Shown: one piece after another, positions 363 through 62,761 of the stretch | Layout: the number at the start of each line of letters is the position of its first letter | Numbering within the stretch: position 1 is the stretch's first letter | Source of the DNA: a virus | Reading direction: 5' to 3' (one strand) | DNA: 64,000 nt | Virus record (IMG/VR): IMGVR_UViG_3300025158_000018 | The notes under the pieces: generated by a model | The model's input: the letters and a program-made list of their open reading frames with translations, nothing else | Databases searched by the model: none | Told to the model about the DNA's origin: nothing | Program-made: the position numbers and the translations under genes

Positions 363-1559
363 ATGGCAACATTTGAAGTCAGAGTTGTACAAGTCACGAT
401 CCAGCCGCACAATAATGCGGATGCACTTGAAATTGCAAACATCAAAGGGTACCAGTCTATCGTCCGCAAGGGGCAATTTCAGACCGGTGACCTAGCCGTG
501 TATATCCCAGAACAATCTATCGTCCCCGAGTGGCTCCTACGCCGTCTCAACCTATGGGATGATGAGAAGGGTAAGGGTAAGCTTGCAGGATCAAATGGAG
601 ATCGTGTCAAGGCCGTGAAGCTCAGGGGAATTGTAAGCCAAGGTCTCCTATACGGTTTGGATTACCTCTATGACGGTCTGGTAGACCTTCCATATTGGGG
701 AATGACTCTCGAAGATGATTCAATACTCAAGGTAGAATTGAGTTCTGAAGTTAGCTCTGATCTTGGTATCACCAAATGGGAACCACCCATTCCTACTCAA
801 ATGGCTGGGGAAGTTTGCAATCTCCATGGTTATACCTTGAAATACGACATAGAAAACATCAAAAACCATCCGGAAGTCGTTGATTATCTTATAAAAAACG
901 ACGTAAAAGTCCAGATTACAGAAAAGCTGCATGGAACTTGGGCCTGTATTGGATTCTACCCAGAAACCATTCACCCTGAAATATTCGGTAACGGTAATGT
1001 TGTTATTACCTCGAAGGGTCTTTCTGGTAAAGGTTTAGCTTTCAAAAATGTACCAAACAACGGCTCCAATCTGTATGTTCGAGCATATCGAGATATCTTT
1101 GCCGACAACCTTGATGGAGTTGGCCTTGATTGTCTGGTTGGTCATCCGGGCGAACCAGTATTCTTTCTTGGAGAGATTTTCGGTAAGGGGGTTCAAGACC
1201 TGACGTATGGTTTCAATGAGGTTCAATATAGACTGTTCGATATCTTCGTGGGTGGTCCCCGTGGAATCGATGGTGGTAGATACCTTTCACCAATGGAAAT
1301 CGAAAATCTTACAGAACTGTTCGCGAAACTTCCGAAACTGTCTAACGTTCCTGTTCTATATGAAGGACCGTTGACCTGTGAAGTCATTGCAGAGTACACT
1401 GACGGAATGGACACTCTGAATGGTCAAAATATTCGAGAAGGGATTATTATCAAACCGCATGATGATCCGTTTCTTTCTTTTGTAGAAGTGGGTCGTCCTA
1501 TTCTGAAGTCTGTGTCTGAAGCGTATCTTCTTCGAAAGAGTGGCACGGAATATAATTGA
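363..1559 (+). CDS. RNA ligase: N-terminal tRNA-binding OB-fold (Myf/Trbp111/CsaA-like) fused to a covalent nucleotidyltransferase ligase domain (Rnl2/Rnl5-like)
   Basis: N-term VRVVQV..HNNADAL..VKAVKLRGIVSQGLL matches tRNA_bind OB-fold signature; C-term ligase motifs I KLHGT, III FFLGEIFG, IV LFDI, V EGIIIKP. Confidence 0.75.
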   Translation: MATFEVRVVQVTIQPHNNADALEIANIKGYQSIVRKGQFQTGDLAVYIPEQSIVPEWLLRRLNLWDDEKGKGKLAGSNGDRVKAVKLRGIVSQGLLYGLDYLYDGLVDLPYWGMTLEDDSILKVELSSEVSSDLGITKWEPPIPTQMAGEVCNLHGYTLKYDIENIKNHPEVVDYLIKNDVKVQITEKLHGTWACIGFYPETIHPEIFGNGNVVITSKGLSGKGLAFKNVPNNGSNLYVRAYRDIFADNLDGVGLDCLVGHPGEPVFFLGEIFGKGVQDLTYGFNEVQYRLFDIFVGGPRGIDGGRYLSPMEIENLTELFAKLPKLSNVPVLYEGPLTCEVIAEYTDGMDTLNGQNIREGIIIKPHDDPFLSFVEVGRPILKSVSEAYLLRKSGTEYN

Positions 1560-2149: not shown

Positions 2150-3301
2150 ATGAAAAATCTATATGAACAACTAAATTGTTTGGCCCACGACGAAAATTCC
2201 CCATTCTATCGCGTGACCCACGTTGGTCCGCATGATGGGGCAGAATATCATGTCTTCTCGTATCATATTGGCTCCTATCAAGATTTTTGTCAAGATGGGG
2301 CACTGGAATGTCGTGGAACCATGTTCCGAATCGAAGAAAATGGTCCGGTACTGGTGTCTCTGCCGTTTTCCAAGTTCTTCAATTATAAAGAAAATCCTTT
2401 CACTATGGATTTGAATCTGTCAGCAGAAAATGTTGATTATGTGACAACCAAAGAAGACGGTTCACTGATTTCAACGTATCTGACTGCGGATGGGCGTCTA
2501 GCCCTGAAGTCCAAAACATCATTGACTTCTTCAATGGCGGTAGAAGCAGAAGCATTGCTTAAAACTATCGAACCTGTAGTCGGTTCTGAATTGGCTCTGT
2601 GTGATGCATGTTGCCTACTCGAACTACAAGGGTTCACTGTCATTATGGAGTATGTGTCCCCAGCCAACCGTATTGTCTTGCCGTACGATGCTTCAAACCT
2701 TGTTGTGCTTGGAGTACGGAAGCGGAACACTGGTGAACTTATGTCGTTCGAGGAAATGAATCATTACCTCGGTCCTTACCTTGTCAAGAATCATGTTCCA
2801 GACATCTACGATTTTGACGAGTTCTTTTCTTCAGTTCCACGAATGAAAGGAATCGAAGGATTTGTTGTACGTTTGAAAGATGGAATTATGTTCAAAATGA
2901 AGACCGACGAATACGTGGCTTTGCATCATGCCAAGGATTCTGTTCGTTCACCACGCAGGTTGATGGAAGTGGTTCTCGAAGAAGCTTCTGATGATATCCG
3001 ACAGATGTTCGCAGATGATCCTCAAGCTTTGGCAGAAATCGACAACATGGAACGATATGTAACTCATCTTGTGGCTCATTTGACTAAACCTGTTGATGAG
3101 TTCTGGGAAGCTAATCAGCATTTGGAGCGTAAAGACTTCGCTATCAAAGCACAGCAGGAACTTGATCGTAAACAGTTCTCGATTGCAATGGGTCGATACT
3201 GTGGCAAGGAGATCGACTACAAAGCTCTTGTGAAGAAGAACCATCAAGAGTTCTTGAGAGATTATCAAACAACTCTGGTGGAGTCCACAGAACAAAACTG
3301 A
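2150..3301 (+). CDS. rnlA: RNA ligase 1 (T4 RnlA family)
   Basis: Collinear similarity to T4 Rnl1 as recalled: ALECRG.MF, KFFN..ENPFTM, motif I TKEDGSLIS, NRIVL, EGFVV. Confidence 0.9.
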   Translation: MKNLYEQLNCLAHDENSPFYRVTHVGPHDGAEYHVFSYHIGSYQDFCQDGALECRGTMFRIEENGPVLVSLPFSKFFNYKENPFTMDLNLSAENVDYVTTKEDGSLISTYLTADGRLALKSKTSLTSSMAVEAEALLKTIEPVVGSELALCDACCLLELQGFTVIMEYVSPANRIVLPYDASNLVVLGVRKRNTGELMSFEEMNHYLGPYLVKNHVPDIYDFDEFFSSVPRMKGIEGFVVRLKDGIMFKMKTDEYVALHHAKDSVRSPRRLMEVVLEEASDDIRQMFADDPQALAEIDNMERYVTHLVAHLTKPVDEFWEANQHLERKDFAIKAQQELDRKQFSIAMGRYCGKEIDYKALVKKNHQEFLRDYQTTLVESTEQN

Positions 3302-3619: not shown

Positions 3620-3694
3620 TGGTAGCGAAGAGCGGAATCGAACCGCTGACCGAAGGGTTATGAGCCGATCCATCTACCACTGATTGTACTTCGC
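3620..3694 (-). tRNA. tRNA-Met-like (anticodon CAT), possibly degenerate
   Basis: 76-nt cloverleaf frame with CTCATAA loop, canonical T-arm and CCA, but 1-72 T.T mismatch and two mismatches in anticodon stem. Confidence 0.5.
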
Positions 3695-3740
3695 AATAGT
3701 TCAGTTTATTTATTTATTATAGAGCTTTATTTTTATTATG

Positions 3741-10126: not shown

Positions 10127-10715
10127 CCATTTTGATTTTCTTCTTCAGTTCTGGAATGGTAATGCCCCGTTCGGCTCCTTTAAAGAAGAACCCGCGAAAG
10201 TCAGATTCGACAAACGATCCAATAGGTTTGACCGAATCTTCAACAACTACCCTACCATTAGCTACAGTGAACAACAGGATCGGCTTGGCGTCTTCTTCGC
10301 AGGTCTCCCCGTCAAACAGTTGGCAACGGAGATTTAGGAAAGGAAAAGCTTCAGCGATCAGTCCCCACTCGGCGGCAACAGCTTCTACATCAGGCCATTT
10401 TCCGATGTTCTTGTTGTTACAACCAATTGTACCATCCCAATCACACCAACCATTCGGACCGCCTATCCAACAACTCATGATACGTTCATTTGTCAGATAG
10501 TAGAGGTCGAGAACCTTGTAGGTTTCTCGATTCTTCTCGGATGCTTCGATCCATGAAATGCCATCATCACTTTCTTTTACAAGGGGGGAACAGACTCTGA
10601 ACTTGTTCCGAAAACTCTTGATCGTTACAACTCCATCGAAAGTTAGGAAGATTGGAATCGGTACGCAGAAGGATTTCCGCAGCCTGTTCTTCAGTAACGT
10701 TGTCACCCTGAACAA
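10074..10715 (-). CDS. hypothetical protein
   Basis: ORF; C-terminus lies inside repeat copy A. Confidence 0.5.
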   Translation of the reverse strand: MFRVTTLLKNRLRKSFCVPIPIFLTFDGVVTIKSFRNKFRVCSPLVKESDDGISWIEASEKNRETYKVLDLYYLTNERIMSCWIGGPNGWCDWDGTIGCNNKNIGKWPDVEAVAAEWGLIAEAFPFLNLRCQLFDGETCEEDAKPILLFTVANGRVVVEDSVKPIGSFVESDFRGFFFKGAERGITIPELKKKIKMVYQENKEDPFLQGGDKF

Positions 10716-10769
10716 TCATTCCGGGCCATTTGTTGGTAATCTCACGGGTATTCTTGAATGTCACGTTGT

Positions 10770-11411: not shown

Positions 11412-11488
11412 TGGTGGGACCGGGAGGACTCGAACCTCCAACCTGCCGATTATGAGTCGGACGCTCTAACCGATTGAGCTACGGTCCC
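11412..11488 (-). tRNA. tRNA with CAT anticodon; features favour tRNA-Ile2 (lysidine) over Met
   Basis: perfect acceptor gggaccg/cggtccc, D-arm like E. coli Ile2 as recalled, loop ctCATaa with A31-T39; TilS gene encoded at 14734..15378. Confidence 0.8.
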
Positions 11489-11608: not shown

Positions 11609-11636
11609 ATTATACCCTATTTATTACCCTTGTCAA
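11609..11636 (-). promoter_or_regulatory. sigma70-like promoter (TTGACA-16-TATAAT), ~115 nt upstream of tRNA 11412..11488
   Basis: minus strand ttgacaagggtaataaatagggtataat. Confidence 0.4.
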
Positions 11637-12967: not shown

Positions 12968-13414
12968 TCAGGAATTTTCCAGACTTTCAAGCTGTTTAAT
13001 CTTGAGAGCGAAAAGTTCTCGATACGATTCGGCTAAATGGTCCCATTCGGGCTTGTAATCCTCATGAATAATAGAATCCTGAGTAAAGAATTGACTGTGT
13101 GAATTATGCCATTCCCACTTGTAGTTATCCACATCAAGAACTTTTAACTGTTCCGGAACCTCACCAGTCCCCTTGTAATGTTCCAGATCGGAAAGAGTTG
13201 GCTGATAGTGAATGGCTGAAATCAGTTTGACAGCAGACGTTAGAAGGTCTGCGGTATCACGAAAAACCTTATCAGAGCAACCACAATCACCAAAAGCCCT
13301 ACGCGAATAGATACTTTCTGGCAACCATGTTGCGAGATCCAATCCTAAATTAGAAATGTCATCCATCTCCCGGACGATATCTCTCATTTGGTCGATGATG
13401 CTTAAATTAAACAT
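12968..13414 (-). CDS. hypothetical protein
   Basis: ORF. Confidence 0.45.
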   Translation of the reverse strand: MFNLSIIDQMRDIVREMDDISNLGLDLATWLPESIYSRRAFGDCGCSDKVFRDTADLLTSAVKLISAIHYQPTLSDLEHYKGTGEVPEQLKVLDVDNYKWEWHNSHSQFFTQDSIIHEDYKPEWDHLAESYRELFALKIKQLESLENS

Positions 13415-14049
13415 TACATTGTTCCTTGAATTTGACTTAGTAAAAGTTTTAATCTTCCAGATTCATCTTGAGACAATTCTTTGTTCTTTGCCCAATAGCC
13501 AACCGGAGGTTTAATGATTCCGTGTTTTTTACAATATTTACCTATGGCTGAATCTGATATACCCATAATACTAGCAAGATTTGAGGTGGATGTCAACCAA
13601 ATAAGTTCTTTCAAAACTTCAGGCTTTATACTTATTTTCCTTGAGGATTCTGCGGCACATCTTTTACTACAATATTTTTTTCTTTTTCTGGAATTTCTTT
13701 TAAATTTATTCCCACACATCTGACACACTGAGTGCTTTTCATTATCAGACATAAGTTCATATCCGTTTAGTGTAACGCCACGTTCTTCTATATGCCCTCT
13801 AGCATGCACCGAAATATCTGTTATTTCTAAATTATTGAGGCTGTTATTTTTCCTATTTCCGTCTTTGTGATGAACTACCTCTGTTGGTAGTAGATTTCTT
13901 TGAAGGCTTTCTGCAACAACATAGCGGTGATAATATAATTTTCCAGATTTGTTCGACATCGGGTGATAGGGAGCATACACCACCATGTACCCCAAATGTT
14001 TATCCTCCCAAACCCTAGTACTCTTTTCAAGTGCGATAAATTTCTTCAT
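13414..14049 (-). CDS. HNH endonuclease (HNH_3-type) with C-terminal Zn-ribbon/HTH region
   Basis: VVHHKDGNRKNNSLNNLE HNH motif; CQMCG..C..C; sits between tRNA-Arg and upstream genes. Confidence 0.7.
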   Translation of the reverse strand: MKKFIALEKSTRVWEDKHLGYMVVYAPYHPMSNKSGKLYYHRYVVAESLQRNLLPTEVVHHKDGNRKNNSLNNLEITDISVHARGHIEERGVTLNGYELMSDNEKHSVCQMCGNKFKRNSRKRKKYCSKRCAAESSRKISIKPEVLKELIWLTSTSNLASIMGISDSAIGKYCKKHGIIKPPVGYWAKNKELSQDESGRLKLLLSQIQGTM

Positions 14050-14733: not shown

Positions 14734-15378
14734 TCAACCACTTAACTGTATCAGTGAATTATACTGCTCTTGTACCTTCTTTGCAAGAACTTTATGAATT
14801 CCCGGATTGACTTCGAGAACCTTGGGGACAAGCTCATGACGAATCTTGTTTCGCATGAATCCAGTATTCTCGTTTGAAGGATCATTGATATAAGGAACAG
14901 AATTACGCTCTGCCCATTCCAAAATTTCTTCTTTCTTAGCCATCAACATAGGCCGAAAACAATTTCCCCGCATGTACGGAACGATCTTAGGTGTTCCGTG
15001 AAAACTGGAAAACAGCCAAGTTTCTAAAACATCATCAAGATGATGCGCCAGTAAAATAGGTTCCGGATATCCGTGTTTTTCTGCCCTGTCGAAAAATGAA
15101 TATCGACGTTCACGCCAGAAATCTTCTTTGGACCTCTTTTCGGGAACGGGATCACGAAGTTCATCAGAAATAAACCCCACGCCCAAGGATTCAGAAACAT
15201 TTTTGACGAAAGAAAAAGCGTCGTCGGCGTGTTCCGTCCCATGATGATAGTGCAACACATTGATCTTCCTACGACCGTTGATTAAAAAGTCAAGAAGGAC
15301 CATAGAATCTACCCCACCAGAAACCGCCACATTGACCCGTTCTGGGATTTCTCCCAACATTCTCATCACGGGAACCAC
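14734..15378 (-). CDS. tilS: tRNA(Ile)-lysidine synthetase, catalytic N-terminal PP-loop domain
   Basis: PP-loop VAVSGGVDSMVLL, LHYHHG, RRYSFF, LAHHLDDVLETWLF, FRPML..EIL.WA...VPYINDPSN...RNKIR collinear with E. coli TilS as recalled. Confidence 0.8.
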   Translation of the reverse strand: MVPVMRMLGEIPERVNVAVSGGVDSMVLLDFLINGRRKINVLHYHHGTEHADDAFSFVKNVSESLGVGFISDELRDPVPEKRSKEDFWRERRYSFFDRAEKHGYPEPILLAHHLDDVLETWLFSSFHGTPKIVPYMRGNCFRPMLMAKKEEILEWAERNSVPYINDPSNENTGFMRNKIRHELVPKVLEVNPGIHKVLAKKVQEQYNSLIQLSG

Positions 15379-15608
15379 TCGAACAAGATCATTCCCAGCA
15401 TGTGAAACCCCGAAAGAATGACAAAAACTACCGCGATGGTGCCCAAAATGCCAATGAGAACGCAGTATGCAAAGACGAAAAGAATTCCAATGTAGAACCG
15501 AAAAGTATCCGGGTCATCACCAAAGATAGCAATAACAATATCCACCGGCAACATGAATACAGTGATGAGGATTGAGGTCAAAGTGTAGGACACGCTGCTG
15601 TTTTCCAT
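15366..15608 (-). CDS. hypothetical membrane protein
   Basis: hydrophobic ORF. Confidence 0.4.
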   Translation of the reverse strand: MENSSVSYTLTSILITVFMLPVDIVIAIFGDDPDTFRFYIGILFVFAYCVLIGILGTIAVVFVILSGFHMLGMILFEWFP

Positions 15609-15669
15609 TTTAGTTCCTGTGAGTGAATTCTATAAGAGCATACTACCATGAAAAAATCGATATGTCAAA

Positions 15670-17629: not shown

Positions 17630-17714
17630 TGGTGCCGAGGGTAGGATTTGAACCTACGGTGTGGAATACTGGGTTACAAAGCCAGTGCAATCGACCAGAC
17701 TATGCGACCTCGGC
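17630..17714 (-). tRNA. tRNA, probably Thr (TGT); unusual 10-11 nt variable region or 9-nt anticodon loop
   Basis: acceptor gccgagg/cctcggc, T-arm gtagg-TTCAAAT-cctac, CCA; anticodon arm folds as ctggc-tttgtaa-cccag (one mismatch) or actgg-9nt-ccagt; TATAAATA 13 nt upstream. Confidence 0.6.
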
Positions 17715-18177: not shown

Positions 18178-19278
18178 TTATCGTCCAGTAACGTGGGTCC
18201 AGATCAAACCATCGCGAATCTTGCGAATGGTCGATTCGTTGACGTTGTAGAGACGACCGATGGAAGCGATAGACATTTCACCATCGAGCAGCAGACGGTC
18301 AATATCGCGAACCTGATGCTTCGTCAGCTTCCCGGTGACTGCGGGGCGACTTGGGGTATTACTAGTGACAATAACGTCCTCAGCTTCTTCCTCAGCTTCT
18401 TCCCCGGTTTCTTCCCCAATGCCGCTCCAATCTTCTTCGAATTCTTCGAATGAATCATCTACGGAGTCATCATCACACCCATCCTCAAAATCTTCATCAA
18501 GTGCGCCGTAACTGTCGATGACGTAGCCAGACATCCGAAGATCGGTCATTACTTCATCGTAAGGAATTTCATCCACGACCTCATAGCGGCAAACACGCAT
18601 TTTGGCGTTATTGTAATCCATCGGAACCGCAACCACGTCACGAGGATGAACCTTAGCAACCATGATTCTGGTATCGGAACTTTTACCGAAGAATCCACCA
18701 TATTGCGGGAGATACCTCTTAGAACAAACGTGCAAACCAGAAGAACAAGTCTGATTAGAATCAGGATTGACCCTGTTGCGGTCCATGGTCGGAATCTGAC
18801 CCACGTGGTTGTCGAACTGACCACTGTAAATGTCCATATAGTCTTGACGAACGATCTTGTAAGCGAGGAAATGACCATCGGGGGTGATGGGAAGATCACA
18901 CGCTTCGATGAAGCGATACAATTCATTCACCGCACGATAGTCCGGGTTTTCCATCAAATTGTCAAGGAATCGAAGAAGGTTCTTGATTGGCAGACGTTCT
19001 TCGAACAACGCACACAAACGATCAATGATCGCATTATGCAGCGGCTCACCCTTGAAAGTCAGGGTCCGAGTCATCGGATCAAATTTGATGCGACCTTCCG
19101 AGACATTCGCTACAGTCTGCTTGAAGTTGATCAGTTGCCGGATAGCCTGTTCATCATCATTGCGGATCGCTTCAAGAACATCCTCAATACGATGGTCTGT
19201 CAGCGGAAACGTGATCGGACGACCGTCGATAAACACGGTAAGGTTCTGTCCGGTCTTGATAAAGTTGATACCACTCAT
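18178..19278 (-). CDS. rIIB: rIIB-like protein with C-terminal acidic tract and HTH
   Basis: SGLHVCSKRYL..VHPRDVVAVPMDYNNAKMRVCRYEVVDEI matches T4 rIIB C-terminal block as recalled; adjacent to rIIA. Confidence 0.8.
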   Translation of the reverse strand: MSGINFIKTGQNLTVFIDGRPITFPLTDHRIEDVLEAIRNDDEQAIRQLINFKQTVANVSEGRIKFDPMTRTLTFKGEPLHNAIIDRLCALFEERLPIKNLLRFLDNLMENPDYRAVNELYRFIEACDLPITPDGHFLAYKIVRQDYMDIYSGQFDNHVGQIPTMDRNRVNPDSNQTCSSGLHVCSKRYLPQYGGFFGKSSDTRIMVAKVHPRDVVAVPMDYNNAKMRVCRYEVVDEIPYDEVMTDLRMSGYVIDSYGALDEDFEDGCDDDSVDDSFEEFEEDWSGIGEETGEEAEEEAEDVIVTSNTPSRPAVTGKLTKHQVRDIDRLLLDGEMSIASIGRLYNVNESTIRKIRDGLIWTHVTGR

Positions 19279-19359
19279 TTCACTTCTCCTATGTAGTTGT
19301 GGAAATTACATTCTATCAGGTATCAGGGACTTGGTCAAGCCCCTTCACCACTTTTCATC

Positions 19360-21660
19360 TTACTTTTCTACCAATTCCAGAATTTTAGGTTTGAAATCAA
19401 TAGAAAAAGTCTCATCTACCATCGGATAACCCTTGCTGATGAAAATTGCCTCGACAATGTAGTTGTTTCTATTAAAATATTCCATCATAATAGTCTGCAA
19501 CGAAACTTCATTTTCGATTTTTTCCAACATTTTGGAAGGAACATAATCAATTCCAGTCATCTTATTCGCGACTTCGAAGAGTTCGTCCATGTTCTGGTAT
19601 TTTGTAGCTGAACCAACAATAGCCTCGACAATTTCCAAATCCCCATGTCTCCGCATAGGATTCATCATCGGTAATGAGTCCTGAGCTTTACGGAACGCTT
19701 CATCATCAAACCCGTAATCCTCGACCGTGCCTTTCAACCACTTTCGATCTACCATACTTCGAACCGATGCGTTGAATGAACAAACGAAGTCGATACAAAC
19801 ATTCAAGGCTTGCGCGCCCTGAATTTCTGTCAGCCGGTCACGCAGAATCCGGTGATGATCGTCGGTCAATTCCTCAATTTCACACAGGTTTTCGTTATCG
19901 TATTTCACACTTTTCGGGATCGCAATGATCTTATAGCCAGCATCCCCAAGCATAGCGGCAAGGGAAAGTTTGTTATAGACATCATCGCAATCATATACTA
20001 ATGAATTGTTATGAGTACGAAGCACTACAGTAGGTTCAGTAATGTCATTCAGATTCGCATCGAATACCGACTGGACATTGTGAGCATACAAAGAACGTTT
20101 GTGGCTAAATTGAGAAACGTAATTGGTGTCCAACCACTTTCCCAAATCAAACCACGCACGAACCTTACCACCTGTAATGCTGGTTCTGGAACGAGAAACG
20201 TTTTTGTCCAAACTGCTAACCCGCACAACCTCGAAAAACTTTTCAAAATATGCTACCAGATCATCAACAGATTGTCCGTCAGCCGGTTCAATGAAGTACA
20301 ACACGAGAGAATCATTATCATGATTATGCATACGAGACTTGTATGCAAACGCCTCATCCTTGATATAAACCCGATCTGCCCTAAACAATTCAATGCCTCC
20401 ATATCTGACAGTCTTGTTATTCTTATAGTCGTACTCGGACCAAACCAGCGGAGTTCTAACAACACTGCCCCGTTCGTCGCCGAAATCAATCTTGCCAAGG
20501 GTACAAGAGGAAACAATATTGGTATCCCACACAACCTTCAAATTACCACTCGGGTCAACGAAGAACGGCTCGTAGTTCTTTTTAAAATCAGTAATATTAG
20601 TCAACGTCCCACGCAAAAACTGTGGCATTTGATTTACAGTATCAAAGAAAGTCTTACACCCCGTAGCATAAGCACTATCTAGACGCTGAACCATTTCATC
20701 GGCAACCTTCTGTTCGGCAGAGCCAATAGCATCAAGAATGTTCTGACAGGTTTCGTCAGTATAGTGCAAACCTTCACGGCTAGGCTGAACTTCAACTGTG
20801 CCAATCGGCATGTCCAACATGGCGCTATGGCGCTCGGGGTGGTAGTACCCTCGTTCAACAGACATTTCTAACAAATGCTTAGTCATTGGAGACAAGGAAA
20901 TACCCTTGTTCTGAGCGTATTCAGTAATCATGCCTTTGTCGATGCGATATCCGACCGGACCGATCTGAACAAAAAAGCCCCGCATGACAGCATTCTGACT
21001 CTTGAAAAACTGGACAGAACCAAAATCCATCGCGACTTCCCAATCAGCCCAATCCCATTGCCTATTCGATACAGGCTTCACTGGGAAAAACCGCAGTTCA
21101 CGAATGACAGCATTGTGGAAAGAGCTGATATCCTTGCCCTGAACCGGGATGGAAACTTCCAGACCTGATTCCTCGTCCGTTTCCATTTCGGCCATCAACT
21201 TGAGATTCGGCATCCCTTCATCCTTGAAGGCAGTGTAGATGCGCTTCACGCCCTTGTGGATCGAAGTGACGGCGAAGGTATCAGTATACGCAAACGGGGT
21301 CTTAGAACCCAACCCAAAAGCCCCCACGGTGTTATTGTCTTGATCCTTGGTCGATTCAAAGAACCGGCAGTACACGCCGCTAATGTCGTCGGGAGAAATA
21401 CCGGGGCCAAAATCACGGATGACCAATTCAGAATCAATACGGTCGGGAAAAGTAAGTACGAAAGGACGCTCAGGCGTACCGACCATCAAATGAGCATCGT
21501 AAGCATTGGAGCAAATTTCACGAATAATAGCCCCAAACTTGTCCTTATAGAGGGTAGACGAAAGAGTATGAAAAGCCTTGGCATTCATTGCCATCGAAAA
21601 TTGCTGCGATCCCGCAACAGCAGAGCCAGTAGCCTTCGAACCGGCGACATTCAATTTCAT
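19360..21660 (-). CDS. rIIA: rIIA-like protein with N-terminal GHKL (HATPase_c) ATPase domain
   Basis: N-box EICSNAYDAH, G1 RDFGPGIS, G2 GAFGLGSKT; size and adjacency to rIIB. Confidence 0.8.
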   Translation of the reverse strand: MKLNVAGSKATGSAVAGSQQFSMAMNAKAFHTLSSTLYKDKFGAIIREICSNAYDAHLMVGTPERPFVLTFPDRIDSELVIRDFGPGISPDDISGVYCRFFESTKDQDNNTVGAFGLGSKTPFAYTDTFAVTSIHKGVKRIYTAFKDEGMPNLKLMAEMETDEESGLEVSIPVQGKDISSFHNAVIRELRFFPVKPVSNRQWDWADWEVAMDFGSVQFFKSQNAVMRGFFVQIGPVGYRIDKGMITEYAQNKGISLSPMTKHLLEMSVERGYYHPERHSAMLDMPIGTVEVQPSREGLHYTDETCQNILDAIGSAEQKVADEMVQRLDSAYATGCKTFFDTVNQMPQFLRGTLTNITDFKKNYEPFFVDPSGNLKVVWDTNIVSSCTLGKIDFGDERGSVVRTPLVWSEYDYKNNKTVRYGGIELFRADRVYIKDEAFAYKSRMHNHDNDSLVLYFIEPADGQSVDDLVAYFEKFFEVVRVSSLDKNVSRSRTSITGGKVRAWFDLGKWLDTNYVSQFSHKRSLYAHNVQSVFDANLNDITEPTVVLRTHNNSLVYDCDDVYNKLSLAAMLGDAGYKIIAIPKSVKYDNENLCEIEELTDDHHRILRDRLTEIQGAQALNVCIDFVCSFNASVRSMVDRKWLKGTVEDYGFDDEAFRKAQDSLPMMNPMRRHGDLEIVEAIVGSATKYQNMDELFEVANKMTGIDYVPSKMLEKIENEVSLQTIMMEYFNRNNYIVEAIFISKGYPMVDETFSIDFKPKILELVEK

Positions 21661-38297: not shown

Positions 38298-39485
38298 ATG
38301 AAGATAATTAAGCTATTCGAGGCGAAAGAACCAGACCTTTCATCCATCATCGGCCCGGATGTTAAAAAATTAGGTCGTATATTCAAAAATAATGGATACG
38401 AAATACGAATCGTAGGTGGTGCTGTGCGTGATGCTTTACTCGGAAAAACCCCCAAAGACATCGACCTAGCAACAACCGCTACCCCGGAAGAGATGGAAAA
38501 GATTGGGCGTGTAAACAACCTTAGAGTTGTTGATACCGGATCAGAACATGGAACATTAACTTTTGTTATAAATGATGAACCTTATGAAATAACCACTTTA
38601 AGAATTGACAAAGATACTGACGGTAGACATGCTGAAGTGGAATGGACTCGCGATTTTAAGGAAGACGCCAGAAGAAGGGATTTGACCTATAACGCTATGT
38701 CGGTGGATATGGACGGAAAACTTCATGATTACTTTGGTGGCCATGAAGACTTGAAGAACAAGCAAACCCGCTTTGTCGGCGACCCAGATGAAAGAATTCA
38801 AGAAGATTATCTCCGGATTCTTCGTTATTTCAGATTCTTGGCCAAACAAGAAGGACGAGCGTCAGACGAACAAACTTTACAATCTATTTCAAGAAATGTT
38901 GGAGGATTACGTAAAATATCGGCGGAAAGAATTTGGTCAGAGTTAAGTAAAATGGTAATACAACCAAATATGAAACAAGCATTCAAAGAAATGAAAAAAT
39001 GTGGCGTCCTAGGGGCCATTTCTATGCCAACAAGCAGTTCAGCAATACGGCACGGAGCCGAAGCTGCAAAACTGCCTGAGATTCGCCCAGAGGCGGTCAT
39101 AGCCACAATGTTGGACGCAACACCGTCGGAGACAATGAATTTCGTGTCGAGAATGAAAATGTCTAGACCAGAAGCCAATTTGATAAACTACATAGTGGCG
39201 CGGGAAAACGTAAAAGGTGTTTCTTTTCTTGATGAAATCTTTTTCAATGGAATTAAACCCGAAACTGTTCGTCAATATGGGTTGGCAGTTGGTGACAGTT
39301 CTGCTGTATCAGCGGCAAAAGCAGCAGAAAATGCTCCACCATTCCCCGTTTCTGGTGGAGATTTATTGAAACGGGGTTTTACACCCGGACCAGAATTAGG
39401 TAAAATGATCAATTCACTCAAAAAACAATGGGTGGACAGTGGATTCAAACTGAACAAAGAACAACTTTTAGGAAAATTGAAATGA
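38298..39485 (+). CDS. cca: tRNA nucleotidyltransferase (CCA-adding enzyme), class II head domain
   Basis: GGAVRD, DIDLAT, RRDLTYNAM motifs. Confidence 0.85.
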   Translation: MKIIKLFEAKEPDLSSIIGPDVKKLGRIFKNNGYEIRIVGGAVRDALLGKTPKDIDLATTATPEEMEKIGRVNNLRVVDTGSEHGTLTFVINDEPYEITTLRIDKDTDGRHAEVEWTRDFKEDARRRDLTYNAMSVDMDGKLHDYFGGHEDLKNKQTRFVGDPDERIQEDYLRILRYFRFLAKQEGRASDEQTLQSISRNVGGLRKISAERIWSELSKMVIQPNMKQAFKEMKKCGVLGAISMPTSSSAIRHGAEAAKLPEIRPEAVIATMLDATPSETMNFVSRMKMSRPEANLINYIVARENVKGVSFLDEIFFNGIKPETVRQYGLAVGDSSAVSAAKAAENAPPFPVSGGDLLKRGFTPGPELGKMINSLKKQWVDSGFKLNKEQLLGKLK

Positions 39486-51938: not shown

Positions 51939-52338
51939 TTGATCATTATATTGATATGAGACGGTATTTGCAATACTACTGGCAACAATTAAAATAGAGA
52001 AGGGGACAAGTTAGCTTGTCCCCTTCTGAGCTTTGGTTATACGGATATTGCTCTAACCCGCATTCGATCAAGCTGCTAGGGCGAAGCCGTTAGCGTTGCT
52101 GTCGAAGTCAGCGTCATTTGCTGCATTTATTTTACTATCATTTTTGCGTCTTTGTTGACGATTCTCCTCGATTCCTAATAACGCCCGGTCGATTTCCAGT
52201 TTCGCCCCCTCCAAAAGCGTCCACCATTTCCCGGATTTACCGGGTTTCTGACGCATTACCCAACTCGTCTAAGGCTTTTTTGTTTGCTACGCCGGGAGGA
52301 TGCCCTATCCTTCCTCTGTTGGCACTTGTAGACGCTTT

Positions 52339-52390
52339 TGGAGACGGCGGGAGTCGAACCCGCGTGTCGTTCGCTTTCAGTCTCGTCTCA
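52339..52390 (-). ncRNA. tRNA-like minihelix RNA (acceptor + T-arm only), candidate
   Basis: 6-bp acceptor gagacg/cgtctc contiguous with T-arm gcggg-TTCGACT-cccgc; only 20 nt where D and anticodon arms belong; TATAAATA plus TATAAT 23 nt upstream. Confidence 0.35.
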
Positions 52391-52428
52391 ACGAATGCTT
52401 ATTATTATACCTATTTATATCCAACCCG

Positions 52429-53133
52429 TCAAGTATCTTCGGACAATTTTATTTTAGTCTTTTTCTTAGTAGTTTTTTTTCTTCCACTGGATACCAATTT
52501 ACCATCCAAGGGGGTTTTGGGAGTAATGTCTTCTGTCTCAAGTAAAGAATTCTTCTCTCCAGCTTCTAAACGAGCAATAAGCTGGTCGGAATCCATCCAG
52601 ATATCTCGACCATCAACTACATGGTCGATCTCTTCTTCTGTAAGAATTTTCTCATAAAACTTTCTCATTATTTTTTCCACATAGCCGTTTACATGCTCTA
52701 CTCTCGTTCTAATTTCATGCCCCTTTCCGATTGCAAAACCGCCAGAATAGTTGTGTATCATAAAAGAACAATTCGGATTGATGATATACTCTTCCCCAGA
52801 TAAAAAAATCAAAGTCGCTGCAGAATGGGCATCTCCGTCTAAAGAAGTAATCACTTTGGCTCTAGATGCGACCATAGAGTTCACAATCTGTATTGCCATT
52901 CTAAGAGAACCGCCTTCACTGTTGATGTAAATTACTATAGTATCCTCTTCATTAGCGGTTTTTAACACATTGAGTAGGTCTGAATACTTGTTAATATCAT
53001 CCTCTATCTCTCCAGACAGATAAAAGTGGTGAACATTTAATTGCAAGCTTTGTACGTAATGCTTAATTTTTGGTGGATCAATCCTAAAAGAAGAACCATC
53101 CTCGAATCTTTCGTCAATTGCTTTATTTGACAT
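52429..53133 (-). CDS. ClpP-family (S14) serine protease homolog
   Basis: INSEGGSL and MIHNYSGG blocks; basic C-terminal tail. Confidence 0.65.
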   Translation of the reverse strand: MSNKAIDERFEDGSSFRIDPPKIKHYVQSLQLNVHHFYLSGEIEDDINKYSDLLNVLKTANEEDTIVIYINSEGGSLRMAIQIVNSMVASRAKVITSLDGDAHSAATLIFLSGEEYIINPNCSFMIHNYSGGFAIGKGHEIRTRVEHVNGYVEKIMRKFYEKILTEEEIDHVVDGRDIWMDSDQLIARLEAGEKNSLLETEDITPKTPLDGKLVSSGRKKTTKKKTKIKLSEDT

Positions 53134-53185: not shown

Positions 53186-55066
53186 TCAGATAACATCAAA
53201 ATCAGCAACATCGACCACAGGAATACCCAATTCTTTAGCTTTCTTCACTTTAGAGCTAGAAGACTTAACGCTTTTGGTAAGAACCATAGTTGTATTCTTA
53301 GAAACAGAAGTCGTGACCTTTCCACCGCGCTCCTCGATTTTTTCTTTCAATTCGTTATCCCTAAATCCTGTCATCACTATAGTTTGACCACCCATACTTT
53401 GCTCGGTCACCGACTTTTTTGTGAAAGTTATGTAGTCCTTGGTTCTATCCAAAAATATATTGAAGCGGCTTAATCCATCATAGATGCTTTCACATGTAGA
53501 ATTAAACCCTTCTAGTTTCTCGATATCTTCGAATGTAGCGTTTTTGAACTCTTCTAGGGTCATTTGTCCCAAAACCTTCTTCGCTTTTCGAACCCCGAAC
53601 CCTCTTCCAAAATAAGGGAGTGATCCCATTACCACTTCAGGTTTTACACTAGAGAGAATAGTATGTAAACTCAGAAACGCCTTTTTCCCATTTTCTCCCA
53701 ACGCTTGTCTCCACTCTTCATCCCATAACTCTATAATTGATACTACCAAATCGTCGAAGATTTTTTCACTCCATCCTTGATGTTCTATTAATTTTTCAAT
53801 AGAAGTTTCTTGTACGTTATCAACACCGAGAGTCTTAAAAAAGTGAACGGTCTCCATCAAAGTACGCTGGGAAGAGATTTCTTCCTTAGAGACAGCTTCA
53901 ACCCCGTTTTCATCCCAACTCCACGTGCCTTTGGGTGGCATGTCGGGGTGAACGGGTCTCGTTACCCCCATCACATACGGGATAACACTACCGGCGCGAG
54001 TGATTTTAATTTTGGCACCACTACCAATCCCATTGTCACGAATAAATCTTGCGTTGTGCCCCGTGGCGTAGGTTATAGTGGCCCCGTCTAACTCAACTTC
54101 TTCAAACTTGATTCTAGGTTTAAAAAAGTTAGACTTAGAAAGTTTCCAGATAACTTCTTTTACCTCTACTTCTTCAAACAGTGTTTGTACCTTAAACTTC
54201 ACAGAGTGTTCCGGGTTCAATGAATCTGAATCAGAGGTTTCCTTGAAATTAGAATAGTCATTGACTGTTACCACTACTCCGTCTAGTTCATACACGCCGG
54301 TTCTCTTGAATTCGGCCAACGTGTTTGCAAGTTTTTCGTCGGTCAGGTCACATCCTTTCATTTTCTCGTGACGAGCCACAGTGAAATCCATCTGCTTCAA
54401 ATGGTTTACGGTTTCTTCTTTCGTAAATACGTTACTAACTCCGGAAACATCGATAATCTCGTAGGCGACAAGATCAACATCTTGCACCATTTCCAGATTA
54501 GTTTCGTTTCTATTAAGAAAACCTGCAACTAAGTTTCTAGGATTCTTGTACTTTCTTTTATATTTGGCGTCAAATACCGAACGGCGCATTATTATTTCCG
54601 CCCGAACCGCCAGATAGTCACAACCGACGGTTTTGGGAATATCGACGATAGCTACAATATGACGAGTAACGTCATGGCCCAGAACACCATCACCCCGCGT
54701 GAACGCTTTGGACAGTTCGGCCTTGCCCCTCCCGTTGCTTTCGTACACCAAAAGAATGCTGGCCCCATCGAGCTTTTCTGTGACTACAACATCATTTTGA
54801 ATACAATCATACTTTTCAGCCCACTTTAACGCTTCACCCTCATAGACCTGATTTAAACTTCCCATAGAGTATGGGAGATGTACTTTCTCCAACGATGTTT
54901 CTTTAACGTGGGGGGCTTTTTTGAAATACTCATGTTCTGGAGAAATTTCCTCGGCTCTCCTACGAAGTGCGTCGTATTGGTCATCGGGGATCAGGGGTGA
55001 ACCCTTATAGTAAGCCTCGTCGAATTTTTGTAAATCTTGAATCGTTTTCTCGATATCGATAGTCAT
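53186..55066 (-). CDS. ligA: NAD+-dependent DNA ligase (LigA)
   Basis: N-terminal Ia YY..SP.I.D..YD, adenylation TEKLDGAS, C-terminal BRCT. Confidence 0.85.
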   Translation of the reverse strand: MTIDIEKTIQDLQKFDEAYYKGSPLIPDDQYDALRRRAEEISPEHEYFKKAPHVKETSLEKVHLPYSMGSLNQVYEGEALKWAEKYDCIQNDVVVTEKLDGASILLVYESNGRGKAELSKAFTRGDGVLGHDVTRHIVAIVDIPKTVGCDYLAVRAEIIMRRSVFDAKYKRKYKNPRNLVAGFLNRNETNLEMVQDVDLVAYEIIDVSGVSNVFTKEETVNHLKQMDFTVARHEKMKGCDLTDEKLANTLAEFKRTGVYELDGVVVTVNDYSNFKETSDSDSLNPEHSVKFKVQTLFEEVEVKEVIWKLSKSNFFKPRIKFEEVELDGATITYATGHNARFIRDNGIGSGAKIKITRAGSVIPYVMGVTRPVHPDMPPKGTWSWDENGVEAVSKEEISSQRTLMETVHFFKTLGVDNVQETSIEKLIEHQGWSEKIFDDLVVSIIELWDEEWRQALGENGKKAFLSLHTILSSVKPEVVMGSLPYFGRGFGVRKAKKVLGQMTLEEFKNATFEDIEKLEGFNSTCESIYDGLSRFNIFLDRTKDYITFTKKSVTEQSMGGQTIVMTGFRDNELKEKIEERGGKVTTSVSKNTTMVLTKSVKSSSSKVKKAKELGIPVVDVADFDVI

Positions 55067-61330: not shown

Positions 61331-62761
61331 TTACCAATTTGTTCGGGCGTTGGTGCGGACCTCTTCAAACGTCATATCCCGTACCAATTTTCCATTCAGG
61401 AATACCTCTTCCAGTAGTTCTATGTCTGTCGGAAGTTTCTCTTCCTCTCTAATGGTGATGGGTAGTCGGACACCGGATCGCTTAACTAATATAACCCGAC
61501 CCGCCTTAGAAGCCTTAGTGGGGTCAGTCTCAGTAGTTTTACATACTTCTCGAATTTCTCCATCAACTTCCACATACGAGCCCTTCATAGCAAAACGTAA
61601 CGTATCTCTCGTCAAATCTTGAAGCAAATATCCACCACACCCAAATGTAATATTATCTGCACTGAAGCCTGAGACCTTCATGGTCTTCAAAATATTTTCG
61701 ACTTCGGAGAGATTCACACCATCACCTTGAATGATTCTGACCGCTGGATTCAAAACTTTAAAACCCTTGTCATTTATAGTGTAGCCGTAAGAATCGGAAA
61801 GCTTGTTCAACGCAAGCATAACCATTTCTGTGGGATTTCCACTGTCTGGACGAATCACCACAGTACCACCCTTTTCTTCTATCTTTTCCCGAAGCTCTGC
61901 CCAAATATTAAGAGCGTTTTCGAACGAATAAGTGTCGCTAACTACAGAAACCATCTTACCCTCGCCACCGTATACATCAATGGCGCGCTCAAAAAACTTC
62001 TTCTCGTTGCCCGGACCTTCTGCAATAGTAACCGTGTGCTCCGTCGCCGGAATTGAAAACCCTGTTACAACCGGAGAATTATAGTACTCCATACAGGCGA
62101 GAATCCCAACAATATTGTCAGTTGCCATGAAATTGACCAAGTGTGCTGCACCAGCAATCTCACTCGACTGCTTAGAAGATGCCCCACGTGCCCCAAAATC
62201 AACAAACTTGAAGTCGATGAGGTCGGGGTCACCAGTTTCTTCCAAGTAACTGGAAATCAATTCCCGGAAACGATATGAGCGCGTTGCGACCGTAGTTCCG
62301 TACCACACGCCACGAAGCAAAGAGGTTTCCACATAGGAAGTGACCCACGCACAATTCTCATCGGTGTTCTCGACAACAACCATCACATTTCCTTCTGGTA
62401 CGTGCATTCCTTCTGGAACTGCGCGAATACTTAAAGGCAAAAACCCGTCACATTCGTTGACTATGTATTCCCAACCTTTCCGGTTGAATGGAAGACCGTG
62501 TGCTGTGATAACGGCTTCGGCCTGATTAACCATTTCCATCGTAACGGGCTTCATTAATGAGGTTTTGATTAAATGTTGAAGACCGAAGAATACTGAAGTG
62601 TCATACTCTCCACCCTTTCGAGCTTCAATATAAGAATACTGTCGGGTGGTTCCGGGTGCCATGAACCCAAAGTGGCTGGTCTTGTACGAGTCGCAATTCA
62701 ATATAGGATTGTTGCTTAATTTGTTCATGTTAAACTCCTTAATCATGTTTTTATAAAGCAA
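61331..62761 (-). CDS. nadV: nicotinamide phosphoribosyltransferase (NadV/NAMPT)
   Basis: N-terminal NCDSYKTSHF, size 476 aa, DFGARG, GDG family blocks. Confidence 0.8.
   Translation of the reverse strand: MLYKNMIKEFNMNKLSNNPILNCDSYKTSHFGFMAPGTTRQYSYIEARKGGEYDTSVFFGLQHLIKTSLMKPVTMEMVNQAEAVITAHGLPFNRKGWEYIVNECDGFLPLSIRAVPEGMHVPEGNVMVVVENTDENCAWVTSYVETSLLRGVWYGTTVATRSYRFRELISSYLEETGDPDLIDFKFVDFGARGASSKQSSEIAGAAHLVNFMATDNIVGILACMEYYNSPVVTGFSIPATEHTVTIAEGPGNEKKFFERAIDVYGGEGKMVSVVSDTYSFENALNIWAELREKIEEKGGTVVIRPDSGNPTEMVMLALNKLSDSYGYTINDKGFKVLNPAVRIIQGDGVNLSEVENILKTMKVSGFSADNITFGCGGYLLQDLTRDTLRFAMKGSYVEVDGEIREVCKTTETDPTKASKAGRVILVKRSGVRLPITIREEEKLPTDIELLEEVFLNGKLVRDMTFEEVRTNARTNW

Follow-up and report, generated by a model that had tools for sequence, protein, structure and literature searches.

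A short viral TilS-like protein and a linked Ile2-type CAT tRNA as a proposed AUA-decoding module of a large phage

Introduction

Does a phage that encodes both a TilS-like protein and a tRNA with a CAT anticodon bring its own means of reading AUA codons? This question is raised by a stretch of 64,000 nucleotides from the IMG/VR virus record IMGVR_UViG_3300025158_000018 (hereafter the window, numbered from its first letter). A sequence-only reading of the window had proposed that a PP-loop gene encodes the catalytic domain of TilS and lies 3 kb from a CAT tRNA resembling tRNA-Ile2, so that an AT-rich phage could decode AUA independently of the host enzyme. In bacteria, the lysidine made by TilS is established to switch both the decoding and the charging of its tRNA, and the same switch is proposed for the phage pair. 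Two features of the window are central:

14734..15366, minus strand: TilS-like gene, 210 residues from an ATG at 15366; predicted minimal PP-loop enzyme with the N-terminal domain only
11412..11488, minus strand: tRNA with anticodon CAU, Ile2-type, CCA end encoded (ARAGORN 119.5; Rfam 73.8 bits); proposed lysidine acceptor

From sequence and modelled structure, we consider it likely that the two form a self-contained AUA-decoding module, in which the phage TilS-like enzyme would convert C34 of the phage tRNA to lysidine. Three rival explanations, each taken up with the evidence that bears on it, are less well supported.

Results and discussion

The PP-loop protein belongs to the TilS family

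The TilS-like protein scored 123.4 bits against the NCBIfam profile TIGR02432 (lysidine_TilS_N; E 1e-35, curated cut-off 93.6), with the match spanning profile positions 2-189 of 189, and this was its best profile match. It also matched Pfam PF01171 (118.8 bits), and PHROGs contained no family for it. A sequence search of the PDB returned only three proteins, the TilS enzymes of A. aeolicus, E. coli and G. kaustophilus, each aligned over the whole N-domain and through the motifs SGGxDS, HHLDDxxET, RP, DxSN and RNxIRH. The collinearity with the TilS N-domain that had first been noticed by eye is thus borne out by a curated profile and by whole-domain alignments to TilS alone. Moreover, SGGxDS, HHLDDxxE, RP, DxxN and RNxIRH are invariant in an alignment of 25 homologues, and the PP-loop itself, SGGVDS, occupies residues 20-25. 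An AlphaFold (AF2) model built from 25 homologues (pLDDT 94.1, pTM 0.90) gave the A. aeolicus and E. coli TilS structures as top Foldseek matches (TMq 0.78-0.81), followed by the TtuA/TtcA thiolases (TMq 0.70-0.76).

Other PP-loop enzymes all fell far below their cut-offs, including QueC, which the sequence-only reading had singled out as a potential better match. QueC reached 13.7 bits with TIGR00364 (E 0.035; cut-off 150.3) and 15.6 bits with PF06508 (cut-off 22), and the matched part was confined to PP-loop residues 17-67. TtcA scored 42.1 bits against a cut-off of 272, and LarE 21 bits against 150. The thiolases of the TtcA/TtuA kind come next by fold but depend on an iron-sulphur cluster. 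Such an activity is excluded for the window protein by its single Cys, which falls in an alignment column that varies among homologues. TiaS does not belong to the PP-loop enzymes. The protein is therefore a member of the TilS family in its catalytic domain.

The CAT tRNA at 11412..11488 is of the Ile2 type

All eleven tRNAs and the permuted transfer-messenger RNA (tmRNA) that ARAGORN predicted in the window lie on the minus strand, and two of the tRNAs have a CAT anticodon. The one at 11412..11488 scores highest of the window's tRNAs with the Rfam model. It follows the TilS-like gene on the same strand at a distance of 3246 nucleotides, in line with the 3 kb given in the sequence-only reading. 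It forms a canonical cloverleaf with the seven-nucleotide anticodon loop CUCAUAA, and it carries G3-C70, C5-G68, U12-A23, C29-G41, A31-U39, A37, A38, A73 and a U27.C43 mismatch. Across 234 surveyed genomes, G3, A3, C70 or T70 never occurred in tRNA-Met or tRNA-fMet and marked tRNA-Ile(CAT), and A11-T24 marked initiator tRNA (PMC1635315); the identity elements of Burkholderia TilS also include G3:C70 (PMC12514573). The window tRNA has none of the initiator features, with G1-C72 and C11-G24.

It is very improbable that 11412..11488 is an ordinary elongator tRNA-Met whose nearness to the gene is coincidental. Such a reading would fit the ARAGORN label, which is Met by anticodon, and the annotation of several closely similar phage tRNAs as tRNA-Met in public records. 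It would also fit the A31-U39 pair and the D-arm, on which the Ile2 assignment had originally been based: both are present as described, but they do not discriminate Ile2 from Met, since the pair and the D-stem recur in E. coli elongator tRNA-Met. However, the anticodon-based Met label is a known default mis-annotation (PMC1635315, PMC1524935), and the G3-C70 pair speaks against it by the survey rule. The resemblance to tRNA-Ile2 therefore stands on other grounds than those first given, namely G3-C70, similarity to an isoleucine tRNA of a related phage, and ileX as the best match in E. coli.

The last two comparisons gave consistent results. In every E. coli genome the best match of 11412..11488 was an annotated tRNA-Ile; in W3110 this was ileX, located between mug and nfeF, with 72% identity versus 66% for metT. 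Both ileX and the window tRNA have the CUCAUAA loop, A31-U39, C29-G41, U12-A23, C5-G68, A73 and a non-Watson-Crick 27-43 pair, whereas ileX has C3-G70, C4-G69 and G27.U43 where the window tRNA has G3-C70, A4-U69 and U27.C43. Within the phage lineage, the relative L170, with an enzyme 54% identical to that of the window, encodes an orthologue 88% identical to 11412..11488, together with a separate C3-G70 CAT tRNA of the elongator-Met type and a tRNA-Ile(GAU). With the anticodon excluded, the window tRNA is 80% identical to this tRNA-Ile(GAU), with which it shares the T-arm and variable region, and 59% identical to the Met-type CAT tRNA, again at odds with an elongator tRNA-Met.

The identity elements of E. 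coli isoleucyl-tRNA synthetase (IleRS) are reportedly A73, U12-A23, C29-G41, A37, A38 and C4-G69, a set said to go back to Nureki and colleagues in 1994. Five of these six are present in 11412..11488, position 4-69 being A-U, although a set defined in E. coli may not fit the IleRS of the host. The determinants of E. coli-type TilS, as given in PMC12069591 citing Ikeuchi 2005, are U33, C34, A37, G27.U43, C4-G69 and C5-G68, and they are not conserved beyond gamma-proteobacteria (PMC12069591). The window tRNA has the loop bases and C5-G68, lacks C4-G69, and is non-Watson-Crick at 27-43 but with U.C.

BLAST similarity to phage tRNAs was rejected as a classifier, the top match being a tRNA-Lys(CTT) of Xoo-sp13 and many others tRNA-Asn; structural positions and comparison within the lineage were used for this reason. 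A 'tRNA-Ile' match in RAS14 was rejected as a CAU orthologue, as its anticodon is GAU, and served only as a comparator for the Ile body. Overall, the positional rules and similarities support the assignment of 11412..11488 as Ile2-type rather than as elongator or initiator Met.

TilS-like genes are linked to CAT tRNAs across viral loci

We asked whether the pairing recurs in other viruses by using 80 viral loci, with DNA fetched up to 10 kb on either side of the TilS-like gene. A CAT tRNA was found in the fetched DNA of 49 loci. In 31 of the 80, a tRNA lay within 200 nucleotides of the gene and invariably shared its strand. Of these 31 tRNAs, 26 were CAT, compared with 50 of all 341 tRNAs in the loci (15%; binomial p ~2e-17). 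The excess persisted when the enzymes were collapsed at 90% identity (20 of 25 CAT) or at 70% (14 of 19). This shows that the TilS-like gene is linked to a CAT tRNA.

The linked tRNAs resemble that of the window. Among 41 unique CAT tRNAs of the viral loci, 39 are without C3-G70, all have A73 and A37, 40 have C32, 33 have U12-A23 and 31 have C5-G68. At each scored position 11412..11488 agrees with this consensus, its U27.C43 mismatch included, a further point against an elongator tRNA-Met. A 27-43 mismatch occurs in 17 of the 41 CAT tRNAs versus 39 of 246 other tRNAs (p 4e-4). We set it aside as a recognition signature and retain it as a lead, because the sequences are not phylogenetically independent and a Watson-Crick pair occupies this position in over half of the CAT tRNAs.

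As a separate observation, three loci (L020, L021, L025) have a CAT tRNA about 40 nucleotides downstream of the TilS-like gene that combines C3-G70 and U1.U72 with C4-G69 and C5-G68. These TilS-adjacent tRNAs are an exception to the simple 3-70 rule.

The linkage also bears on a rival explanation, that the enzyme mainly lysidinylates host tRNA-Ile2 to boost a limiting host step, the phage CAT tRNA being served by host TilS or being incidental. We regard this as unlikely, and the two roles can coexist. In its favour, TilS activity varies more than 1000-fold among bacteria and is very low in the high-GC B. cenocepacia (PMC12514573); furthermore, 31 of the 80 viral loci had no CAT tRNA in the fetched DNA, and XacN1, Xoo-sp13 and RAS14, the closest cultured relatives by DNA ligase, are not among 35 TilS-positive phage records. 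Yet a CAT tRNA so close to the gene and on its strand, as seen in many independent lineages, would be hard to account for if the phage tRNA were not the substrate, and an enzyme without acceptor-stem-reading domains has no evident means to favour it.

A viral family of N-domain-only TilS proteins

In type II TilS the N-domain is followed by C-terminal domain 1 (CTD1), and type I adds CTD2 (PMC12514573, PMC11947777). The bacterial enzymes of known structure, type II from A. aeolicus (PDB 1WY5, 2E21, 2E89) and type I from E. coli (1NI5) and G. kaustophilus (3A2K), share the PP-loop catalytic domain and its motifs with the window protein. They differ in the added C-terminal domain or domains: the window protein stops after the N-domain and linker helix, is without CTD1 and CTD2, and in the AF2 model terminates at residue 214 inside the linker helix. 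It failed the full-length TilS model NF007942 (65.5 bits versus a cut-off of 606).

This short form is widespread. More than 1100 metagenomic homologues of about 200 residues were found, and more than 560 viral contigs encode a short TilS-like protein. All 80 fetched viral homologues end at a query-equivalent position of 201-225. Bacterial homologues are different: 76 of the 77 fetched proteins that could be measured run on past the N-domain, to about 254-458 residues in query coordinates. Nine of these reach about 254-301 residues, consistent with type II, and 67 about 399-458, consistent with type I; the single outlying value, 31, is probably a partial-alignment artefact. These bacterial proteins are the closest matches from a search that took one genome per species from 185,579 species of bacteria and archaea, and none exceeded 38% identity. 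A neighbour-joining tree, for which the viral and bacterial sets were both chosen by similarity to the query, placed all 69 distinct viral sequences, including those of the window and PA5oct, in one clade against 80 bacterial N-domains. Judged by these lengths and relationships, the short form is a property of a large viral family and not a truncation.

The C-terminal domains of characterised TilS enzymes contribute strongly to catalysis, which recent enzymology describes as acting at a distance, and to the rejection of tRNA-Met (PMC11947777, PMC12514573). A rival explanation for the short form would be a TilS fold with a different or relaxed activity, acting on all CAU tRNAs including host tRNA-Met and tRNA-fMet as a form of host shut-off, using another amine, or persisting as a decayed remnant. 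The missing CTD1 and CTD2, credited with tRNA-Met discrimination (PMC11947777), and the failed full-length model would fit such a relaxed activity. So would two CAT tRNAs of phage PA5oct that have the same anticodon arms on different acceptor stems, which a reader of the stem-loop only could not separate. Even so, we hold this explanation to be quite improbable. A remnant is ruled out by the constant length in the more than 560 viral contigs and the invariant catalytic motifs, and the lone Cys, in a variable column, excludes an iron-sulphur thiolase. Conversion of Met tRNAs would harm phage translation too, and the linkage is specifically to tRNAs of the non-C3-G70 type.

A bolder proposal is that the phage proteins of about 200 residues represent a third natural type of lysidine synthetase. 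It would consist of the catalytic domain alone, obtain its specificity through the anticodon stem-loop of a co-inherited and co-evolved tRNA, and thus form a portable, orthogonal AUA-decoding cassette. We see the chances for and against it as evenly balanced. The frequent U27.C43 mismatch and the non-C3-G70 body are candidate recognition features of such a minimal enzyme.

One contig outside the window deserves mention here. IMGVR_UViG_3300023283_000076 (270 kb; loci L003 and L006) encodes two short TilS paralogues separated by about 30 kb, and a G3-C70 CAT tRNA of its own lies 1.6-3.3 kb downstream of each. The anticodon stems of the two tRNAs differ, and the loci may be two separate enzyme-tRNA pairs.

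AUA demand and phage affiliation

The codon count called for in the sequence-only reading showed AUA to be frequent. The window has a G+C content of 40.5%, and of the 1129 Ile codons in its 71 ORFs of at least 100 residues, 315 are ATA (28%). This corresponds to 19.5 per 1000 codons, close to ATG at 23.4. Published AUA frequencies are 4.9 per 1000 codons in E. coli and 0.6 in B. cenocepacia (PMC12514573).

The window is from a large T4-like or jumbo phage. Its NAD-dependent DNA ligase with a BRCT domain (53186..55066, minus strand) places it near XacN1, Xoo-sp13, Stenotrophomonas RAS14/CM1, Phosso and Atu_ph07, and the closest cultured relatives by this ligase infect Xanthomonas, Stenotrophomonas, Sinorhizobium and Agrobacterium. 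A nicotinamide phosphoribosyltransferase (NAMPT) is encoded at 61331..62761 (minus strand), and together the two genes suggest a phage-encoded NAD+ supply for the ligase. A megablast search of the region against 50,697 phage records gave no match.

Proposed mechanism of the AUA-decoding module

We propose a mechanism in four steps. Both genes would first be transcribed early, from host-type promoters that match two patterns on the minus strand (11636..11609 and 15668..15640):

11609..11636, minus strand: promoter-like site TTGACA-16-TATAAT, about 120 nucleotides upstream of the CAT tRNA; perfect sigma-70 consensus (12/12), a consensus match only
15640..15668, minus strand: promoter-like site TTGACA-17-TAGTAT with TG, upstream of a small ORF and the TilS-like gene; 10/12 consensus, a pattern match only

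In the second step, C34 of the phage tRNA would be adenylated at C2 by the PP-loop, and lysine transfer would yield lysidine, a step suggested by the conserved TilS motifs and the fold. With lysidine in place, the tRNA would read AUA instead of AUG and be charged by IleRS instead of methionyl-tRNA synthetase. AUA decoding would thereby be supplied without reliance on host tRNA-Ile2 or TilS. Because both C-terminal tRNA-recognition domains are missing, the enzyme presumably reads only the anticodon stem-loop and, more speculatively, may be tuned to its linked tRNA. It is the catalytic activity, substrate choice, timing and host independence of the phage pair that we infer; independence from host TilS, as the sequence-only reading had suggested, is a reasonable inference that the gene linkage in other phages strengthens.

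Several points weigh against this mechanism. A protein without both C-terminal domains might be weak, unspecific or partner-dependent, and the activity of N-domain-only TilS proteins is a prediction. A separate C-terminal-domain gene or a conserved protein partner was sought beside the gene in the 80 viral loci, and none was found: the commonest neighbour clusters occur in at most 27 of the 80 loci, none has a member in the window, and a ClpP protease and a protein without a significant Pfam match head the list. In the window the gene and tRNA are not adjacent, with 3.2 kb between them, and a relative with a 74% identical enzyme (L169) has no CAT tRNA in the 6.2 kb of downstream DNA at hand. 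For the tRNA, A4-U69 stands in place of C4-G69, and the class assignment derives from published rules and similarity rather than from a trained isotype model. Finally, poor AUA decoding by the host is an assumption.

Relation to known systems

Phage TilS, the AUA rationale and phage tRNA-Ile(CAU) have all been published (PMC6892783, PMC7589089, PMC7029224, PMC1524935), and the idea is not new. Among the closest precedents are PA5oct gp064 and MIJ3 gp263 of Pseudomonas jumbo phages, likewise phage-encoded proteins of about 200 residues that consist of the N-domain alone. Their identity to the window protein is 38%, with 96% of the query aligned, and they group in its viral clade, but their phage lineage and host differ. 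These TilS proteins were reported in 2019 with function stated as unknown and a speculated aid to host viability (PMC6892783), and the authors drew no tie to a specific phage tRNA (PMC6892783). In PA5oct, three CAT tRNAs are located roughly 7-10 kb upstream of TilS, one of them with a GGGAC acceptor stem like that of the window tRNA. Two of the PA5oct CAT tRNAs (locus L082, 10169..10245 and 10650..10726) are identical in D-arm, anticodon arm (with a C27.U43 mismatch) and T-arm, and differ only in the acceptor stem, CCCTCGG with C3-G70 versus GGGACTT with G3-C70.

Phage TilS has also been noted in pelagimyophages (PMC7029224), and RsoM2USA encodes a longer form of 349 residues (PMC8504454). A putative lysidine synthase is encoded alongside tRNA clusters by 39 of 41 chloroviruses (PMC7589089), for which the same AUA rationale of an AT-rich virus in a GC-rich host was given (PMC7589089), although the hosts are eukaryotic algae. 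In T4-like phages, tRNA-Ile(CAU) genes were recognised in 2006; these tRNAs have IleRS signatures and had been mis-called Met by tRNA finders (PMC1524935). Lysidine at position 34 (k2C34) was measured on the tRNA(CAU) of a T4-like vibriophage, as cited in PMC13191261. For its modification, host enzymes have been suggested (PMC13191261), and a phage TilS was not reported for these T4-like phages, whereas the window carries the enzyme too.

In the searchable literature we found no explicit statement that viral enzymes are without both C-terminal domains, and no statistical linkage of viral TilS to an Ile2-type tRNA. The novelty of this locus is low to moderate, and the remaining interest lies in the minimal enzyme architecture and the dedicated tRNA. 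In annotation terms, the 'tRNA-Met' at 11412..11488 should become tRNA-Ile2 and the PP-loop ORF a TilS-like lysidine synthetase. If active and specific, the phage enzyme would be the smallest known lysidine synthetase and a tractable system in which to study how C34 of tRNA-Ile2 is told from C34 of tRNA-Met, and the enzyme and its linked tRNA could serve as a compact orthogonal pair for codon engineering.

Gene start and neighbourhood of the TilS-like gene

The longest ORF at this position spans 14734..15378 (minus strand) and would give 214 residues from a GTG at 15378, but the true start is probably the ATG at 15366. This start is favoured because it overlaps the stop of an upstream 80-residue ORF as TGATG, was chosen in the annotation of an identical JGI contig of 27.6 kb, and is in register with the MIKLLG-type N-termini of homologues. 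Genes near it, and their counterparts, are:

15366..15608, minus strand: small hydrophobic ORF, 80 residues; stop overlaps the TilS start (TGATG)
L168 9573..9803, L169 1103..1312 and L170 9786..10001: counterparts of the small ORF, upstream of the TilS-like gene in these relatives
13414..14049, minus strand: HNH endonuclease gene between the TilS-like gene and the CAT tRNA (PF13392 HNH_3, E 4.8e-6)

The counterparts of the small ORF occupy the same position in relatives L168-L171 with 33-46% identity. Throughout the lineage this ORF (69-80 residues) stands directly 5' of the TilS-like gene, abutting or overlapping its start, and a Pfam search with it gave no match. The lineage gene order is rIIA, rIIB, DUF1810, a 190-residue ORF, the small membrane ORF, TilS, a 136-residue ORF and tRNA-Arg(UCU). 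Upstream of the TilS block in the window, 18178..21660 (minus strand) holds rIIB (Pfam Phage_T4_rIIB) and an adjoining gene of 766 residues in the rIIA position, with a weak HATPase_c_3 match; this order is kept in L168 and L170. Since the tRNA lies only 18-62 nucleotides from the TilS-like gene in many other phages, the HNH endonuclease gene is possibly an insertion that split the two in the window.

Other RNA genes and RNA enzymes of the window

The second CAT tRNA of the window was absent from the sequence-only reading:

3620..3695, minus strand: CAT tRNA, initiator-like, with a U1.U72 mismatch, C3-G70 and A11-U24 (low Rfam score, 42.9 bits); not the proposed substrate

It is called initiator-like on account of these three features and its closest E. 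coli match, tRNA-fMet (62% identity versus 49-54% to the Ile2 and Met types). Its anticodon stem has G30-C40 and G31-C39, with two mismatches, U.U and C.C, at the centre.

The remaining tRNAs read TTA, TTG, CTA, CCA, AGA, GTA and ACA, mostly A-ending codons. The tmRNA gene is a permuted, two-piece gene at 51977..52429 (minus strand) with the tag peptide AANDADFDSNANGFALAA, and it matched Rfam tmRNA_permuted (RF04321) with 60.9 bits (gathering score 47). On the plus strand, the window encodes an RNA ligase with a PHA02142 OB domain (363..1559), a T4 Rnl1-type RNA ligase (2150..3301) and a nucleotidyltransferase of the CCA-adding/poly(A) polymerase family (38298..39485), which together are a tRNA repair and maturation gene set. 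With the A-ending-codon tRNAs, the tmRNA, these enzymes and the TilS-like gene and its tRNA, the phage brings much of its own equipment for decoding and tRNA maintenance. The tRNA-Thr(UGU) at 17630..17714 (minus strand) is 85 nucleotides long, with a D-loop and variable region enlarged relative to the 74-75-nucleotide orthologues in L168 and L170.

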